The notes beneath the pieces were generated by a model, which saw nothing but the letters and a program-made list of their open reading frames with translations, had not been told where the DNA came from and ran no database searches. A stretch of DNA of 64,000 nt. Origin: Polyangiales bacterium. Its GTDB lineage: Bacteria; Myxococcota_A; Polyangia; Polyangiales; Ga0077539. The stretch covers positions 192,001-256,000 of the forward strand of contig JBGARZ010000012.1 in NCBI GenBank assembly GCA_044229975.1, given 5' to 3'. Shown piece after piece: positions 6,779-38,479 of the stretch (its first letter is position 1; the number at the start of each line of letters is the position of its first letter). The position numbers and the translations under genes are program-made.

Positions 6779-8122
6779 TCACTCCGTCGCGGTGAGCCCG
6801 TGGCGACGCAGCAACGCGCGCAGGTGCTTGCGATCTACGCCCGACTGCCGCGACGCGGCCGACAGGTTTCCCTGACATGCGTCCATCAGCGAGCGCAGGT
6901 ACCGCCGCTCGAAGGCATGCAGCACCAGCGACTTGCTCTCGTCCCACGGAACGTCCGCCGTCACCGCGGGCCACGGGTCGTCCACCGCGGCGAGTCCATC
7001 GATGGCGATGCGCAGCTCACCGAAGGACCTCGCGCGCGGTGAAAGCGCGACGGCGCGGTCGATGACGTTGCGGAGCTCGCGCACGTTGCCGGGCCAGTCG
7101 TGGCCCATGAGCGCGTCGAGCCCGGCGCCCTCCACCACGCCAGGCTCCAGGCCGCGGCGGCGCAGAAGCTCGGCGACGAGCAGCGGGAGATCCTCGCGGC
7201 GCTGGCGCAGCGGGGAGAGCGTCACGCGCACCACGGACAGGCGGTAGTAGAGGTCGGAGCGGAAGGTCCCATCGGCCACCTGCGCGAGCAGGTCGTGGCG
7301 CGAGGCGGCGAGCAGACGAACGTCGGCGGGGCGGTCGTCGTCGGCCCCCACCGGGCGCACACGACGGGTCTCCACGGCGCGGAGCAAGCGCGCCTGAACC
7401 GCGGGTGAGACGCCGCCGAGCTCGTCGAGGAAGAGGGTTCCGCCGTGGGCGCGGGCGAAGGCGCCGGCGCGCTGGGCGCTCGCTCCGGTGAAGGCGCCCT
7501 TCACGTGGCCGAAGAGCTCACTCTCCAACAACGACTCAGGGAGGGCGCCGCAGTCGATGGCGACGAAGGGCTTGTGGCGTCGCGGCGAGAGGTCGTGCAC
7601 GGCGCGGGCGGCGAGCTCCTTGCCCGTCCCCGTCTCGCCTTCGAGGAGCACGGTGACGTCGGAGTCGGCCGCGAGTTCGAGCACCGCGAACGCCTCGCGC
7701 AACGAGAGGCTCTCGCCCACGAGCTCACCGCACCGACGCGAGCGCGACGGCGCCACCTCCAGCGCACGCGCGACGGGCACCACGCGCACGAAGCTCCGAC
7801 CGAGCTTGAGCGTCGCGCCCAACGGAACCGTCGACTGATGGACCAGCGCGCCTTCGTAGAGGGTTCCGTTGGTGGAGTCGTGGTCGGTGACTGCGAAGCG
7901 CCCGGCCGCGGCCTGGAGCGTGACGTGGCGGCGCGACACGCGCTCGTCGGTGAGCACGAGCTCGCACGCGGGGTCGGTGCCGAGCGTGACCGCACCGTCG
8001 GGCAACGGGAGCGCGACGGCGCGACCGGCGTCGGGGCCTTCGATGACGACGACCTGGCAGCGGGGTGTTCCGGTGAGGCCGGGCAGCGACGCGGTGTGGA
8101 CGGTGGCCGTGGGGTCGCTCAT
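6779..8122 (-). CDS. FHA-domain sigma54-dependent enhancer-binding protein (Fis HTH)
   Basis: FHA (VSRRH, STNGT), GETGTGKE, ESELFGHVKGAFTGA, WPGNVREL, C-terminal HTH; start set to ATG 8122. Confidence 0.93.
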   Translation of the reverse strand: MSDPTATVHTASLPGLTGTPRCQVVVIEGPDAGRAVALPLPDGAVTLGTDPACELVLTDERVSRRHVTLQAAAGRFAVTDHDSTNGTLYEGALVHQSTVPLGATLKLGRSFVRVVPVARALEVAPSRSRRCGELVGESLSLREAFAVLELAADSDVTVLLEGETGTGKELAARAVHDLSPRRHKPFVAIDCGALPESLLESELFGHVKGAFTGASAQRAGAFARAHGGTLFLDELGGVSPAVQARLLRAVETRRVRPVGADDDRPADVRLLAASRHDLLAQVADGTFRSDLYYRLSVVRVTLSPLRQRREDLPLLVAELLRRRGLEPGVVEGAGLDALMGHDWPGNVRELRNVIDRAVALSPRARSFGELRIAIDGLAAVDDPWPAVTADVPWDESKSLVLHAFERRYLRSLMDACQGNLSAASRQSGVDRKHLRALLRRHGLTATE

Positions 8123-33042: not shown

Positions 33043-35448
33043 TCACGCCGCGGGGCGCAGCGCGTCGTCGTTGGCCTTCGCGGGCGAGCCCGGCGTGACC
33101 AGCACCTCGCCCGAGGAGCCCACGGGTTCGAGCGCCGCCGCGAGCACCTCGCGCATGTCGTCGGCGAAGATGAACTCCATCGCCTCGCGCACCGCCGTCG
33201 GCACGTCCTCCAGGTCGCGCTCGTTGCGCGCCGGGAGGATCACCCTCGCGATGCCCGCGCGGTGCGCCGCGAGCACCTTCGCCTTGATGCCGCCGACGGG
33301 CATCACCTTGCCGCGCAGCGTGCACTCGCCGGTCATCGCCGTGTCGGGCCGCACCCGCCGCCCGGTGAGCAGCGACGTCAGCGCCGTGAACATCGTCACG
33401 CCCGCGCTCGGCCCGTCCTTCGGAACCGCGCCCGCCGGCACATGGATGTGCACGTCGTGGCCGTCCATCACGTTGCCCGACAGCCCGAGCTCGTCCGCGT
33501 GGGAGCGCACATACGTGAGCGCCGCGCGGGCCGACTCCTTCATCACGTCACCGAGCTGCCCGGTGATCTCCAGACCGCCCTTGCCCGGCATGCGCGAGGT
33601 CTCGATGAAGAGGATGTCCCCGCCCACCGGCGTCCACGCGAGGCCCGTCGCCACGCCCGGCGCCGCCGTGCGCTCGGCCACGTCGCTGAAGAACTTCGCG
33701 CGCCCCAGGTACTTCGCCACGTCCGCCGCATCGACCACCACCTTGGTCGGCGCGTGGTCGGTGGCGCGGGCGACCTCCAGGGCGACGGCGCGCGTCACCT
33801 TGGTGATCTCCCGCGTGAGCTGCCTCACGCCCGCCTCGCGGGTGTAGTCGCGGGCGATGGTTCGGAGGCCCTCGTCGGTGATGGTGAGCACCTCGTCGGG
33901 GATCGCGTGCTCCTTGCGCTGCTTGGGCACCAGGTGCTGCCGCGCGATCTGCACCTTCTCCTCGGTCGTGTAGCCCTGGAGCTCGATGATCTCCAGGCGG
34001 TCACGCAGCGGCGCAGAGATGGCCCCGAGGTCGTTGGCCGTGCACAGGAAGAGCACCTCCGACAGGTCGAAGGGGATCTCCAGGTAGTGGTCGGTGAACG
34101 ACTTGTTCTGCTCCGGGTCGAGCACCTCCAGCAGGGCAGCCTCGGGCGACCCGCCCCACCCGCTGGTGAGCTTGTCGATCTCGTCGAGCAGCACCACGGC
34201 GTTGCGCGCCTTGGCCTTCTTGAGCGCGTTCAGCAGCCGACCGGGCATCGCGCCGACGTAGGTGCGGCGGTGACCGCGAATCTCCGCCTCGTCGCGCACG
34301 CCGCCCAGCGAGATGCGCACGAAGGGTCGCCCCGTCGCGTCGGCGATGGACTGCCCGAGCGAGGTCTTGCCCACGCCCGGCGGACCCGCGAGGCACAGGA
34401 TCGTCCCCCGCGCGTTGCCCGTGAGCTTGAGCACGGCCATGTGTTCGAGGATGCGCTTCTTCACGTCGTCGAGGCCGGCGTGGTCGGCGTCGAGCTGCTT
34501 CGCGACGGCGTCGACGTCGTCCTTCGCGACGGAGCGCTTCGACCACGGCAGGTCGGCGATGAGCTCCAGGTAGTTGCGGATGACGTGCGCCTCCGCCTGC
34601 TGGCCGTTCATGGACTCCAGGCGGCGCAGCTCGCGGTCGGCGACGATGCGCGCGTCCTCCGAGAGCCCGGCGTCGTCGAGCTTCTTCTTGAGCGCTTCGA
34701 GGGAGGCATCGCCGTCCTGGTCGTCGCCGATCTCCTTCTTCAGCGCGCGAATCTGCTCGCGCACGATGGCGTCGCGCTGGTTGCGGTTGACCTCGCGGCG
34801 CACGTCCTGATCGATCTTCGACTTGATGTCGTTGAGCGCGCGGGCCTCGGAGACCAGGCTCGCGACGAGGCGCAGCCGGGCGCCCACCTCGGTCTCGCGC
34901 AGCACGCTGAGCTCCTTGTCGGAGGCTAGGCCCATGAGCGCCGCGACCTGGTCGGCCACGAGCCCGGGGTTGTCCTCGTCGGCCTGGACGGCGCCGAGCG
35001 TCCCGCCGTTGCGGGCGGCGAGCTCGGTGACGTGCTGCTTGAGCGACTGCGCCAGGAGCCGCGCCTCGGCGGGGTCGCTGACGGTCTCTTCGAGGGCCTC
35101 ACCCTCGGCCTGCCAGTACGGCTCGCTGCGCGCGAGGCCCGTCAGGCGAAAGCGGCTCAGGCCCTCCAGCACCACGCGGTAGCCCCGCTCGCGGGTGCGC
35201 TCGATCTGAACGATCCGAGCAACGGTCCCGACTTCATGGAGGTCGCCGAGGGAGGGGTCGGCCACGCCGGCCACCCGCTGGCTCACGACGCCGAGGATGG
35301 CGCGGGGGCCGAGGTCATCGAGCATGGCCACGGAGCGGCTGCGGCCCACCGGAAGCGTGAGGGTCGTGCCGGGAAACAGGGTTCCGCTGCGAAGGGGCAG
35401 CAGGGCAAAGGGGGCGCGAGGCATCACGGTGTCGTTTCGCTGGCTCAT
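33043..35448 (-). CDS. lon: ATP-dependent Lon protease
   Basis: GPPGVGKTS, GHRRTYVGAMPG, DEIDK, PKDGPSAG (catalytic Ser), GGIKAK (Lys). Confidence 0.97.
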   Translation of the reverse strand: MSQRNDTVMPRAPFALLPLRSGTLFPGTTLTLPVGRSRSVAMLDDLGPRAILGVVSQRVAGVADPSLGDLHEVGTVARIVQIERTRERGYRVVLEGLSRFRLTGLARSEPYWQAEGEALEETVSDPAEARLLAQSLKQHVTELAARNGGTLGAVQADEDNPGLVADQVAALMGLASDKELSVLRETEVGARLRLVASLVSEARALNDIKSKIDQDVRREVNRNQRDAIVREQIRALKKEIGDDQDGDASLEALKKKLDDAGLSEDARIVADRELRRLESMNGQQAEAHVIRNYLELIADLPWSKRSVAKDDVDAVAKQLDADHAGLDDVKKRILEHMAVLKLTGNARGTILCLAGPPGVGKTSLGQSIADATGRPFVRISLGGVRDEAEIRGHRRTYVGAMPGRLLNALKKAKARNAVVLLDEIDKLTSGWGGSPEAALLEVLDPEQNKSFTDHYLEIPFDLSEVLFLCTANDLGAISAPLRDRLEIIELQGYTTEEKVQIARQHLVPKQRKEHAIPDEVLTITDEGLRTIARDYTREAGVRQLTREITKVTRAVALEVARATDHAPTKVVVDAADVAKYLGRAKFFSDVAERTAAPGVATGLAWTPVGGDILFIETSRMPGKGGLEITGQLGDVMKESARAALTYVRSHADELGLSGNVMDGHDVHIHVPAGAVPKDGPSAGVTMFTALTSLLTGRRVRPDTAMTGECTLRGKVMPVGGIKAKVLAAHRAGIARVILPARNERDLEDVPTAVREAMEFIFADDMREVLAAALEPVGSSGEVLVTPGSPAKANDDALRPAA

Positions 35449-35618
35449 GTGTGGGGACTCCTTCGCGATCATTTGGACGCAGGCGCACGTTCGCGATCGG
35501 AGTCACACTCACCCGCTGTGAGTTGCACCCCTACCGCTCACGCCGTCGCTCCCGCCGCTCATCCCCTGGTGTGCATCGACGACATCCATCGGGTCGTCGC
35601 AGGGCTGTTTGTTCGAGA

Positions 35619-35720
35619 GTGAACGGAAACTAAATTCGTTCACGGCTTCGTCAAGACTCAGAGTCGTCGACGGCTCGATCGTTTCAATTGTGAAATACAT
35701 TTCATCCACATTTGAAATGT
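35619..35720. promoter_or_regulatory. AT-rich palindrome cluster, probable enhancer-binding-protein sites
   Basis: GTGAACG-N11-CGTTCAC (35619-35643); TTTCA-N4-TGAAA (35682-35695); ACATTTCA-N8-TGAAATGT (35697-35720). Confidence 0.6.
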
Positions 35721-35770
35721 CCGGGAGTCGGACACTTGTCCATGCTCTTGAAAGCAGGGACTTCGACCCT

Positions 35771-35785
35771 TGGCACGGACCCTGC
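35771..35785 (+). promoter_or_regulatory. sigma54 -24/-12 promoter
   Basis: TGGCACGGACCCTGC against consensus TGGCACGnnnnTTGC, one mismatch. Confidence 0.7.
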
Positions 35786-35796
35786 GATGTGTGTAC

Positions 35797-35880
35797 TCGG
35801 CGGCGGCGCCGGCGTCCTCCCCCCCCAACGCCATTGGTGCCGTCGCTTTATTAATTCTGCTTCCTCGCCAGAAGCAGTGT
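35797..35880 (+). ncRNA. Candidate sigma54-dependent small RNA with C-rich loop
   Basis: Stems 35800-35810/35836-35846 and 35811-35815/35828-35832, loop CCUCCCCCCCCA, A/U tract, second hairpin 35857-35877; no + strand CDS follows. Confidence 0.55.
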
Positions 35881-35891
35881 CCGCCCGAGAC

Positions 35892-38144
35892 TCAGGGGGC
35901 GCGGACACCCAGGCGATCTTCGACGAAGGTGAACATGCGCGTCAGGCGCCGGAGTTCATCGGAACGCTGGGTTCCGGCTCCGTGCCCGACGTTGCGCTGC
36001 ATGTAGAAGAGCACCGGGGCGTCGCTGGTGGTCTCGTCCTGGAGGCGAGCGGCGAACTTCGTCGAGTGTCCCCAGTGGACGCGGGTGTCGTGGTCGGCCG
36101 TCTCGATCCAGGCGGCGGGGTATCGCACGGCCGGGCTGACCCGATGATAGGGCGAGTACGCGTGGAGCCAACGGAACGCGTCGGGCTGGGCAGGGTCGCC
36201 GTACTCGCTGGTCCAGATCTCGGCCGGGGGAAAGTGCGCGAAGCGAACCATGTCGTAGAGGCCGACGCCCGCGAAGGTGGCCGCGAAGGTGTCGGGCGCG
36301 CGGGTGAGCATCGCGCCCATGAGCAGCCCGCCATTGGAGGCGCCGTTGATGGCGATGCGCTCGGGTGAGCTCCAGCGGCTGGTGGAGAGCCAGCGCAGCA
36401 CGGCCTCGAAGTCTTCGAAGACGCGCTCCTTGTTGCCCATGGCGCCGGCGCGGTGCCAGTCCTCGCCGAACTCCGATCCGCCGCGCAGGTTGGCCACGAC
36501 GTAGATGCCGCCGCGTTCGAGCCAGTAGATGGGGTCGCGACGGAAGGTCGGGAGCAACGGGACGTTGAAGCCACCGTACCCATACAGGAGCACGGGGTTG
36601 TGGCCGTCCTGGGTGGCGGCGCGCGGGCGGAGGATGAAGGCGTTGATGGGGGTTCCGTCGCGAGAGGGGACGGAGGCGCGCTCCATGACGAAGCGGGAGT
36701 AGTCGACGTCGCTGGTGGCGTGGTCGAGGGTGGCGGGACGGAGCCCCGTGGGCCGCGCATCGACCGCGAGCACCGCCGACGGCTCGAAGAACGACTGAAA
36801 CCCGAAGGTCACGAAGGGACTGTCCCCATTGGAGACCACGGTGGGCGCGCTGCCCTCGGCGGGGAGCGGGATGTCGCGGGGATCGGTTCCGTCGAGGGTG
36901 TACGAGCGGAGGTGGGAGGCGATGTTTTCGAGGTGCGAGGTGACGAGCCGGTCGCCCGCGAGGGTGAAGTCTTCGAGCGGGTGCTGACCCTGGGCGATGA
37001 CCGTGCGCCACGCACCACCCGACGCGGGCACCGATGGCGTCGCCGCGGGCAGCATGAGCTGCGCGGCAGGCGCGGCGTAGAGGGCGTAGCGGGGCGCCTG
37101 GTCGTTGCTGAGGACGAAGACCGTGCCGCGGTGGATGGTCGCGTGCGAGATGCTCTCGCGCCCGGTGATGACGGGCACCGCGCGAGGGAGCGCACCGCGG
37201 GCGACGGGGGCGCGACGATCGATGAGGTGGACCTCCGTGCGGCTCCAGCCCTTGAAGAGGTTGACCACCACGTAGCGACCGTCGCTGGAGACGTCGGGTG
37301 ATGGCGCGTCGGTGCGCTCGGTGGCCTCGTAGACGCGGACATCCGCGGTCCCGTCGGGGGCAGTTCGCAGACGGTGGAAGAACATCGCCCGCCAGTAGGA
37401 GTCCTCGTGGGCGGGGTCGTGGTGGGCTTCGCCCGCGCGGGGGTAGCGGGTGAAGTAGAAGCCGGACTCGTCGGGCAGCCACGAGAGGCGGCACCACTTG
37501 GCGTGAGCGATGGCCTCGGGGAGCATCTGCCCGGTGGTGACGTCGAGGACGTGCAGCACGGAGCGCTCGTCGCCGTTTTGCGAGAGGCCGAGGGCGAGGT
37601 AGCGGCCGCGCGGGGACGGGGTCATCCAGTCGACGGCGGTGCGATCACCGAGGGTGTGCGGGTCGAAGAGCTGCCGCGGGGCGGACCACGCTCCGGCCGC
37701 GTTGCGCTCGCTGACCATGACGACGGCCTGTTCGCGCTCGCCGTCGCGCTTTGTGTAGAAGATGCGCGAGCCGCCCATGGTGGCACCGCGGAGGTTGCCG
37801 ATGGCGAGGAGCTGGCCGAGGCGGCGCTCGATGTCGGGGCGCGGGTGGGCGGCGAGGTAGGCTTCGGAGCGGGCGTTCTGGGCGTCGACCCAGGCGGTGG
37901 TGACGGGGGATTCGGTCTCGAGGGCGCGGTAGGGGTCGGCGACCTCGGTGCCGTGGAGGGTCTCGGTGACGGCGCCGACGCGGGCGGGCGTGTTGATGGC
38001 GTCCGTCTCGCGCGCGGCGCGGGCGGGAGGCGCGGGGTTGGCGAGCGCGGGGGGCGCGGGCTCGGGGCCGGCCAGGACCGGCGGCGCGGCGTGGGCGCAC
38101 GAGAGGGCGACGAGGGGGAGAACGAGCCAGAGGGAACGACGCAT
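35892..38144 (-). CDS. Prolyl oligopeptidase (S9A) lipoprotein
   Basis: DPYRALE, YGYGGFN, RGGSEFG, GASNGG, DHDTRV, VGHG; lipobox LSC. Confidence 0.95.
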   Translation of the reverse strand: MRRSLWLVLPLVALSCAHAAPPVLAGPEPAPPALANPAPPARAARETDAINTPARVGAVTETLHGTEVADPYRALETESPVTTAWVDAQNARSEAYLAAHPRPDIERRLGQLLAIGNLRGATMGGSRIFYTKRDGEREQAVVMVSERNAAGAWSAPRQLFDPHTLGDRTAVDWMTPSPRGRYLALGLSQNGDERSVLHVLDVTTGQMLPEAIAHAKWCRLSWLPDESGFYFTRYPRAGEAHHDPAHEDSYWRAMFFHRLRTAPDGTADVRVYEATERTDAPSPDVSSDGRYVVVNLFKGWSRTEVHLIDRRAPVARGALPRAVPVITGRESISHATIHRGTVFVLSNDQAPRYALYAAPAAQLMLPAATPSVPASGGAWRTVIAQGQHPLEDFTLAGDRLVTSHLENIASHLRSYTLDGTDPRDIPLPAEGSAPTVVSNGDSPFVTFGFQSFFEPSAVLAVDARPTGLRPATLDHATSDVDYSRFVMERASVPSRDGTPINAFILRPRAATQDGHNPVLLYGYGGFNVPLLPTFRRDPIYWLERGGIYVVANLRGGSEFGEDWHRAGAMGNKERVFEDFEAVLRWLSTSRWSSPERIAINGASNGGLLMGAMLTRAPDTFAATFAGVGLYDMVRFAHFPPAEIWTSEYGDPAQPDAFRWLHAYSPYHRVSPAVRYPAAWIETADHDTRVHWGHSTKFAARLQDETTSDAPVLFYMQRNVGHGAGTQRSDELRRLTRMFTFVEDRLGVRAP

Positions 38145-38169
38145 AGGGCGCGGAGAATCGCACATAACC

Positions 38170-38325
38170 CAGGGTGATCGGTGGGGAGGGGGCAGGGTTG
38201 AGGGTGGGGGGTAGGCAGGGTTGAGGGTGGGAGGGGGGAGGGTTGTCGCTGGGGGAGGAGCAGGGTGATCGCTGGGAGGGGGAGAGGGACATCGGTGGAG
38301 GGGATGGAGGGTCATCCCTGGGGTT
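38170..38325 (+). repeat. G-run-rich tract with two short direct repeats
   Basis: Many G3+ runs; ggcagggttgagggtggg at 38191 and 38214; cagggtgatcgstggg at 38170 and 38261. Confidence 0.7.
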
Positions 38326-38479
38326 GAGAGAAAAACGACATCGGACACGAAACTCATCGCAACGGGGCCGACGACAAGAGCGCGTGACACGTCGGGAGCG
38401 TCCGCCGGTGAGCCGCCACAATGGTTGTGGCGCCGCCGACGGAGGGCCCGAGCGGGGTCATTCAAGAACGGAGTTCACC

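Follow-up and report, generated by a model that had tools for sequence, protein, structure and literature searches.

A dispersed cassette of a sigma54 promoter and a C-loop hairpin in Polyangiales: a predicted small RNA family with likeness to Pxr

The stretch of DNA analyzed here (the window) comprises 64 kb of a Polyangiales genome of ~10 Mb, designated G000, whose assembly is 93% complete (C numbers denote its contigs, and L numbers denote loci). A first-pass annotation had described a near-consensus sigma54 −24/−12 element in the window, on which the next gene converges. Indeed, a sigma54 promoter (TTGGCACGGACCCTGCG; positions 35770 to 35786, plus strand) is present, with TGGCAC-N5-CTGC at 35771 to 35785 as the single occurrence of this motif across the 64 kb. 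Since the GG of the −24 box is located at 35772 and 35773 and the GC of the −12 box at 35784 and 35785, the transcription start is predicted at ~35797, and rpoN was found in G000. The converging gene is prolyl-oligopeptidase-like (35892 to 38465, minus strand; match to the oligopeptidase B model below the cutoff). On the other side lies lon, coding for endopeptidase La (33043 to 35472, minus strand; TIGR00763 above the cutoff), which is divergent from the RNA promoter. A scan of the site for sigma70 promoters and terminators gave nothing; its permitted loops of 3 to 8 nt exclude the hairpin described below. Two contig-level sequencing runs (a small share, at 80% identity) represented related organisms and covered neither the promoter nor the full hairpin.

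The predicted start is followed by the core of a putative small RNA of ~58 nt (35797 to 35856, plus strand), delineated by folding, a covariance model, and pair counts. The interrupted 16-bp stem, the C-rich loop, the U-rich tract, and the second hairpin of 7 bp were all found as they had been described. Hairpin 1 (35799 to 35847) is made up of 17 bp, or 16 if the terminal G-U pair is not counted, with a 3-nt bulge, its C-run loop CCUCCCCCCCCA (35816 to 35827, plus strand) is the predicted seed, and the U-rich tail UUUAUUAAUU (35847 to 35856) follows directly. Folding of 35797 to 35880 as the plus strand yielded −38.6 kcal/mol with a z score of −4.5, and 0 of 200 shuffles were as good, whereas the minus strand gave a z score of −2.6. 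Hairpin 2 (35857 to 35877, 7 bp) had been counted as part of the RNA unit, but its sequence is not conserved across the family, and it may mark the end of either the RNA or the mRNA that converges from the peptidase gene. According to the folds, the RNA from the window copy could stop at ~35856, behind hairpin 1 and the U-rich tail, or may reach ~35880. The other three copies in G000 carry a long second hairpin with UUUGU at the end, as seen on inspection of their folds.

These three copies also show that promoter and RNA are not an orphan, as had been assumed. The cassette, made up of an enhancer palindrome, a sigma54 promoter, and a 17-bp hairpin with a C-run loop, is found four times in G000: in the window, at C14:158079-158140 (minus strand), at C33:12416-12475 (plus strand), and at C39:322084-322143 (plus strand). 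A covariance model restricted to the RNA, without the promoter, was built from 19 copies and had matches in 19 of 24 genomes of the same uncultured family (1 to 7 copies each) and in 0 of 126 genomes from other families of the order. In total, 77 copies were gathered from the 24 genomes of this family, which apparently belongs to Polyangiales. In the 77-copy alignment, 12 of 17 pairs vary on both sides and 97% of the cells pair, a value reached in 0 of 500 shuffles; this alignment was fitted to the model and includes one false antisense row (L019), which was excluded from the other counts. When 19 copies were aligned with MAFFT, both sides had changed in 4 pairs, and RNAalifold gave the same structure. 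The sense strand was the better fold in only 51 of the 77 copies. A sigma54 box precedes the model start by 24 to 27 nt in 67 copies, and a box with the same spacing was present in 26 of the 30 copies first detected by the promoter-free model. The anti-Shine-Dalgarno word CCUCC, initially put forward as the key feature, is found in only 22 of 77 loops; the invariant is a C run of 5 to 11 residues, present in 77 of 77 loops with variable flanks. A GTDB-wide pattern scan listed mostly chance matches, and among 100 of the 117 loci listed there were at least 22 strong copies (≥37 bits) in 21 loci, in records labeled Deltaproteobacteria, Proteobacteria, Myxococcota, Myxococcales, Myxococcaceae, or Polyangiales. 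We consider it very likely that the cassettes are a real family of small RNA genes, as predicted from these alignments.

With 1 to 7 dispersed or tandem copies per genome among unrelated neighbors, the cassette could also be looked upon as a small DNA repeat or mobile element without RNA function. This is highly improbable in view of the compensatory changes, among which there are many G-U pairs, and of the divergence of the spacers while promoter, enhancer phase, and loop stay constant. Moreover, in eight copies (seven from a single genus) the promoter has been exchanged at matching distance. These copies (L013, L014, L016, L048, L050, L054, L055, and L039) have neither the sigma54 box nor the enhancer palindrome in the range of 70 to 140 nt and carry a sigma70-like promoter of the type TTGC..CATA instead.

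The genes next to the cassette differ from copy to copy: lon was found at 13 and the peptidase gene at 11 of the 77 copies, and ROK proteins, kinases, transporters, and others were found elsewhere. As judged with a crude open reading frame caller, 47 copies have a converging next gene, 24 have one in the same direction, and 6 have none. If the hairpins did no more than terminate the converging peptidase gene or serve lon in cis, a stop codon close by would be fitting, and in the 11 linked loci the peptidase stop is indeed 3 to 97 nt from hairpin 1 (just 3 to 4 nt beyond it in 6 of the 11, with L006 ambiguous because of two readings); hairpin 2 could serve the peptidase mRNA. However, so few copies have either gene as a neighbor, and promoter and enhancer travel with the hairpin. 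For hairpin 1, the dispersed copies largely rule out a role as peptidase terminator only, and this explanation, too, has very little probability. The proximity to lon stands as far as the position goes, for lon does adjoin the cassette, but the gene is divergent and the link is incidental: the association is restricted to the 13 copies, and the Sorangium lon orthologue (L397) is located at neither cassette of its genome.

G000 has four Lon genes (window, C11, C32, and C38). The gene near clpP is the one on C38, and the closer Corallococcus Lon has its best match on C32; the Lon protein of the window is distinct from both and, judged by its sequence, is a third type, common to Sorangium (68%). 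An inverted repeat, GTGAACG-N11-CGTTCAC (35619 to 35655, minus strand), spans the −10/start region of a CTTGACG sigma70-type lon promoter. It is kept in 11 of the 13 lon-linked loci and before L397, and this is its only full match before a gene in G000. The repeat is likely the operator for a repressor of this Lon paralogue.

Upstream of the RNA promoter, the window contains the palindrome TTTCA-ATTG-TGAAA (35682 to 35695), 89 bp before the −24 box, which is predicted to be an enhancer site for an activator of the PxrR type, and a second, degenerate site (35704 to 35717) 67 bp before the −24 box that reached 13.1 bits when scored with a family-derived matrix. The commonest enhancer position in the family is 65 to 68 bp, and the consensus is TT[G/T]CA-N4-TG[C/A]AA. 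Of six occurrences of the 14-bp palindrome in G000, four are upstream of the four RNA copies. When 212 sigma54-like sites of G000 were compared, a strong palindrome was present at just 4, which are the four copies (21 to 23 bits; next, 7.2), a comparison that is partly circular because the matrix was derived from the family. The core T[G/T]CA-N4-TG[C/A]A was found 70 to 140 nt upstream in 63 of 77 copies (shuffled mean, 0.17; maximum, 3), with positions across the family in steps of roughly 11 bp. A site resembling that of IHF between enhancer and promoter was a weak signal (18 of 77 copies versus a shuffled mean of 6.5 and a maximum of 15). Two palindromes in G000, C11:178433 and C31:3132, are without an RNA copy, and the former lies ~1 kb ahead of a gene for a type IV pilin-like protein; both are possible direct targets of PxrR, or chance occurrences.

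In Myxococcus, fruiting-body development is gated by Pxr, an RNA that blocks development and is processed to an L and an S form. The first-pass annotation had proposed a Pxr-like small RNA and tentatively ascribed a C-rich loop to Pxr. Pxr does have such a loop: UUCCCCCCCA is present in the Corallococcus pxr locus as well as in a primer printed in PMC5568312, which confirms the C run for Pxr of M. xanthus as far as the primer sequence goes. In Corallococcus, this loop (C7) tops a long imperfect first stem downstream of a sigma54 box, and the upstream region contains TTTCA-TCCC-TGAAA and TTTCA-GGCC-TGCAA, which is the same palindrome as in the cassette, in similar helical phases. Another palindrome is located just downstream of Corallococcus pxr (L222:3428). 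Thus, Pxr (RF01812; activated by PxrK/PxrR, the latter identical to Nla19; M. xanthus and other Cystobacterineae) and the cassette share the sigma54 promoter, the upstream palindrome, a long imperfect first hairpin with a C loop (C6 to C8 in Pxr, C5 to C11 in the cassette), a PxrR orthologue, tandem paralogues in some genomes, and an Hfq that was not found. In contrast, Pxr has three stem-loops with a conserved SL3, whereas the cassette has one conserved hairpin, other stems, no SL2 or SL3 sequence, and a hairpin 2 unlike SL3. Furthermore, pxr is a single gene directly behind pxrK-pxrR, whereas the siblings in G000 are dispersed away from pxrR.

A search with Rfam including Pxr did not identify the RNA: RF01812 had no match in the window or in G000, whereas the Corallococcus locus, as the positive control, scored 109.9 bits. 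A Rfam Pxr search over 151 genomes of the phylum gave nothing, with an equally silent positive control, and the cassette covariance model applied to Corallococcus did not detect pxr. Because the cassette fails the Rfam model, lacks SL2 and SL3, and is not positioned behind pxrK-pxrR, it was not filed with Pxr; promoter, palindrome, and C loop largely support the proposed likeness, and the cassette is Pxr-like in its predicted working, not a member of Pxr. Since the stems cannot be aligned, homology of the RNA to Pxr would rest on promoter, loop, and synteny.

Among 33 enhancer-binding proteins found in G000, one (C38:14987-16489) is the best match to PxrR (51%; 459 versus 348 bits), has the same recognition helix, TTLWRKMKRL, and groups in a FastTree phylogeny with PxrR and the proteins encoded upstream of pxr (clade of 20 rows, support of 99; three intended rows were absent from the tree, and row L320 was a different protein). 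A PxrK candidate is encoded on C32 (45.6%; 238 versus 142 bits), and both candidates are on contigs other than those of the RNA copies. Two genomes of the order have the cassette 200 and 292 nt behind the helix of the pxrR orthologue (L343, which is cut by a contig end, and L362). No cassette was found within 1.5 kb at 30 loci with a pxrR helix (L313 to L342), and one was found within this distance in 2 of 20 further regions, 14 of which had been chosen for pxrR-like helices. The marker pattern used, TLWRKM[KR], is imperfect, as it also matches another activator clade and missed most of family f17 (7/64); a protein search in that family revealed PxrR orthologues in 4 of 4 genomes tried. According to the part of the literature consulted, PxrR is essential to the synthesis of Pxr (PMC10217877). 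It is quite probable, as these sequence data suggest, that PxrR drives the cassette family, and if the cassettes are relatives of Pxr, the PxrR binding site becomes a testable 14-bp palindrome; the swap to a sigma70-like promoter would then free one sibling from PxrR control. In one genus (g7), two copies (L031 and L081) are located beside a different enhancer-binding protein, an orthologue of the one encoded at C15:150300-151814 in G000. It was set aside as the activator because it is outside the PxrR clade. Feedback on pxrR was also considered, but pxrR leaders have no consistently conserved G run.

How might the RNA act? Phosphorylated PxrR would bind both palindromes, 67 and 89 bp ahead of the −24 box, and open the sigma54 polymerase at ~35797, giving an RNA of 55 to 85 nt (~105 nt at the other three copies). 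The single-stranded C run would then seed G-C pairing with mRNA leaders without a chaperone, like 6C RNA, and pairing at G-rich ribosome-binding sites would block translation, the four siblings acting redundantly or additively like the Qrr RNAs of Vibrio. Taken by itself, action by loop pairing with G-rich leaders is probable, and we also favor, with reasonable confidence, the reading as a whole, i.e., that the cassette likely encodes a small RNA of the Pxr class that is likely activated by PxrR and is predicted to block translation in this way. Several published observations are in line with this, as far as the accessible parts of the reports go. Pxr with a mutated first loop lost its function while accumulation was kept (PMC5684412), TRIC-seq placed Pxr near the Shine-Dalgarno sequence of several mRNAs in M. 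xanthus, which is without Hfq (preprint 10.1101/2025.09.11.675593), and the C loops of 6C RNA pair without chaperones (PMC6486639). On the other hand, TargetRNA3 predicted pairing of Pxr with pxrA mainly via the third stem-loop (PMC11928866), which counts against a view restricted to the first loop. Hfq was not found in G000 (93% complete), although the positive controls were detected.

CsrB and RsmZ are known to titrate CsrA, and in the same way the C-run loops of a PxrR-driven RNA could sequester a protein that binds poly(C) (Rho, or one of the KH or S1 type). A decoy of this kind would be in accordance with a C run of 5 to 11 residues in variable flanks, with relatives in other families that have two or three C loops per RNA, and with PMC5684412, which, in the portion available, allows target pairing or chaperone binding for Pxr. 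In a duplex scan at 7,517 crude gene calls, strong loop pairing was not in excess at the Shine-Dalgarno region over the upstream control (for example, 73 versus 67 at −18 kcal/mol). Because there was no such excess, no target is named and the decoy is kept as a candidate. We nevertheless regard it as unlikely, since TRIC-seq puts Pxr near Shine-Dalgarno sequences and since 6C RNA, with the same build of several C loops, pairs directly.

Comparable systems are known from other bacteria. 6C RNA of the Actinobacteria has C-run loops on GC-rich stems, like the cassette, pairs with G-rich mRNA independently of chaperones (reported in the accessible part of PMC6486639), and has two C loops, as do some relatives within this order; it differs by a pair of adjacent loops with at least six C residues each, whereas the window copy has one C loop, by the phylum, and by the absence of a Rfam match. 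CcsR/cuckoo RNAs of the Alphaproteobacteria likewise expose a CCUCC-containing loop, and a weak Rfam match to CcsR1 (14.9 bits versus a gathering threshold of 65.3; E value, 6.8) was seen at the RNA site. However, their motif CCUCCUCCC is absent here, and few cassette loops contain CCUCC. No Rfam family matched the 64-kb window at gathering level. The Qrr RNAs of Vibrio need Hfq, which was not found in G000. As proposed for the cassette family, several sibling RNAs account for almost all that a single sigma54 activator controls, LuxO in the case of Qrr1 to Qrr5. The half-sites of the LuxO site, TTGCA-W3-TGCAA, as given in the accessible text of PMC10162802, are similar to those of the cassette palindrome, but the spacer is 3 bp rather than 4 bp, the RNA is unrelated, and there was no Rfam Qrr match. 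By analogy, the likeness to LuxO-Qrr is one of architecture.

To determine the distribution beyond the family, a composite pattern was used that joins the palindrome, a sigma54 box, and six C residues. It was found within the order in 226 of 401 genomes (16 for the reversed control) and in 78 of 121 genomes of the class of Corallococcus (control, 5), where true pxr genes and tandem arrays were recovered, but outside the order in only 10 of 252 genomes of class and phylum (control, 4), and five of these that were inspected were not hairpin cassettes; the tallies include four unpublished genomes (G128, G443, G526, and G737), which enter into none of the other results. In the folded examples from other families, an imperfect first hairpin with a loop of C6 to C10 directly after the start was seen in nearly all cases, followed by a U-rich tract or by more hairpins, often with their own C loops. 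RNAs with two or three C-loop hairpins, a build like that of 6C RNA, were seen at L262 to L275 (family f9), L227 to L236 (family f7), and L371 to L392 (family f17). L248, L288, L356, and L255 to L259 lack the C-loop hairpin build and look like chance matches. A Rfam scan of 13 loci that are not Pxr-like gave no family at an E value of 1 or better, and two divergent loci of the class of Corallococcus matched Pxr below the cutoff. Two cassettes and a PxrR orthologue of 69% identity are present in Sorangium cellulosum So ce26, and both cassette and orthologue are present even in a 1.8-Mb genome within this order (G082).

Does this distribution reflect descent from a common RNA? C-loop hairpins could have arisen repeatedly behind copied PxrR promoters, which would make the RNA Pxr-like without being Pxr descended; such an origin would bear on descent alone and would leave the proposed mechanism untouched. 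The stems indeed have no similarity to those of Pxr, the cassette model detected nothing in the 126 genomes of other families, and the Rfam Pxr model detected none of the Polyangiales-type copies tested. Against repeated origin, the first hairpin has the same position and build throughout, and the synteny of pxrR and cassette is kept in both classes: in addition to L343 and L362, divergent single-hairpin forms are located behind pxrR at L286, L287, L289, and L290 in the class of Corallococcus. Repeated origin is therefore rather unlikely in our view, and descent from the same locus as pxr is probable. A broader proposal has a somewhat better than even chance of being correct: Pxr would be one branch of an ancient class of myxobacterial C-loop small RNAs that forms almost the whole PxrR regulon behind a single conserved enhancer palindrome, predates the split of Myxococcia and Polyangia, and has expanded into dispersed siblings like those of the Qrr system.

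Pxr is a textbook case of a recently born small RNA in control of multicellular development, and it has been difficult to pin down its targets. If the cassettes are relatives of Pxr, the claim of a recent origin falls, and if the class is ancient, fruiting-body formation would be gated by an older switch for nutrients or growth that acquired this use secondarily. Under control of the Pxr type, the system would be older and more widespread than published; the published range of pxr, as far as given in the consulted parts of PMC5568312, PMC5684412, and PMC8538405, is Cystobacterineae, and the cassette is outside it. In the literature searched, there was no report of wider pxr homologues or of a PxrR site (Yu et al. 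2016, J Bacteriol, and Chen et al. 2014 may bear on this), and the available text of PMC5684412 and PMC5568312 mentions the enhancer region without giving a motif. With hundreds of divergent copies at hand, the C-run loop is the sole invariant feature of the RNA, which narrows the search for targets to G-rich leaders. The 58-nt RNA is directly testable in the existing complementation assay of M. xanthus, and a cultured Sorangium strain has two copies (L374 and L394). Seven cassettes were found within 3.6 kb of one genome (G528:C1:9574148-9577729), six of them ~385 nt apart, in an arrangement resembling tandem pxr arrays.
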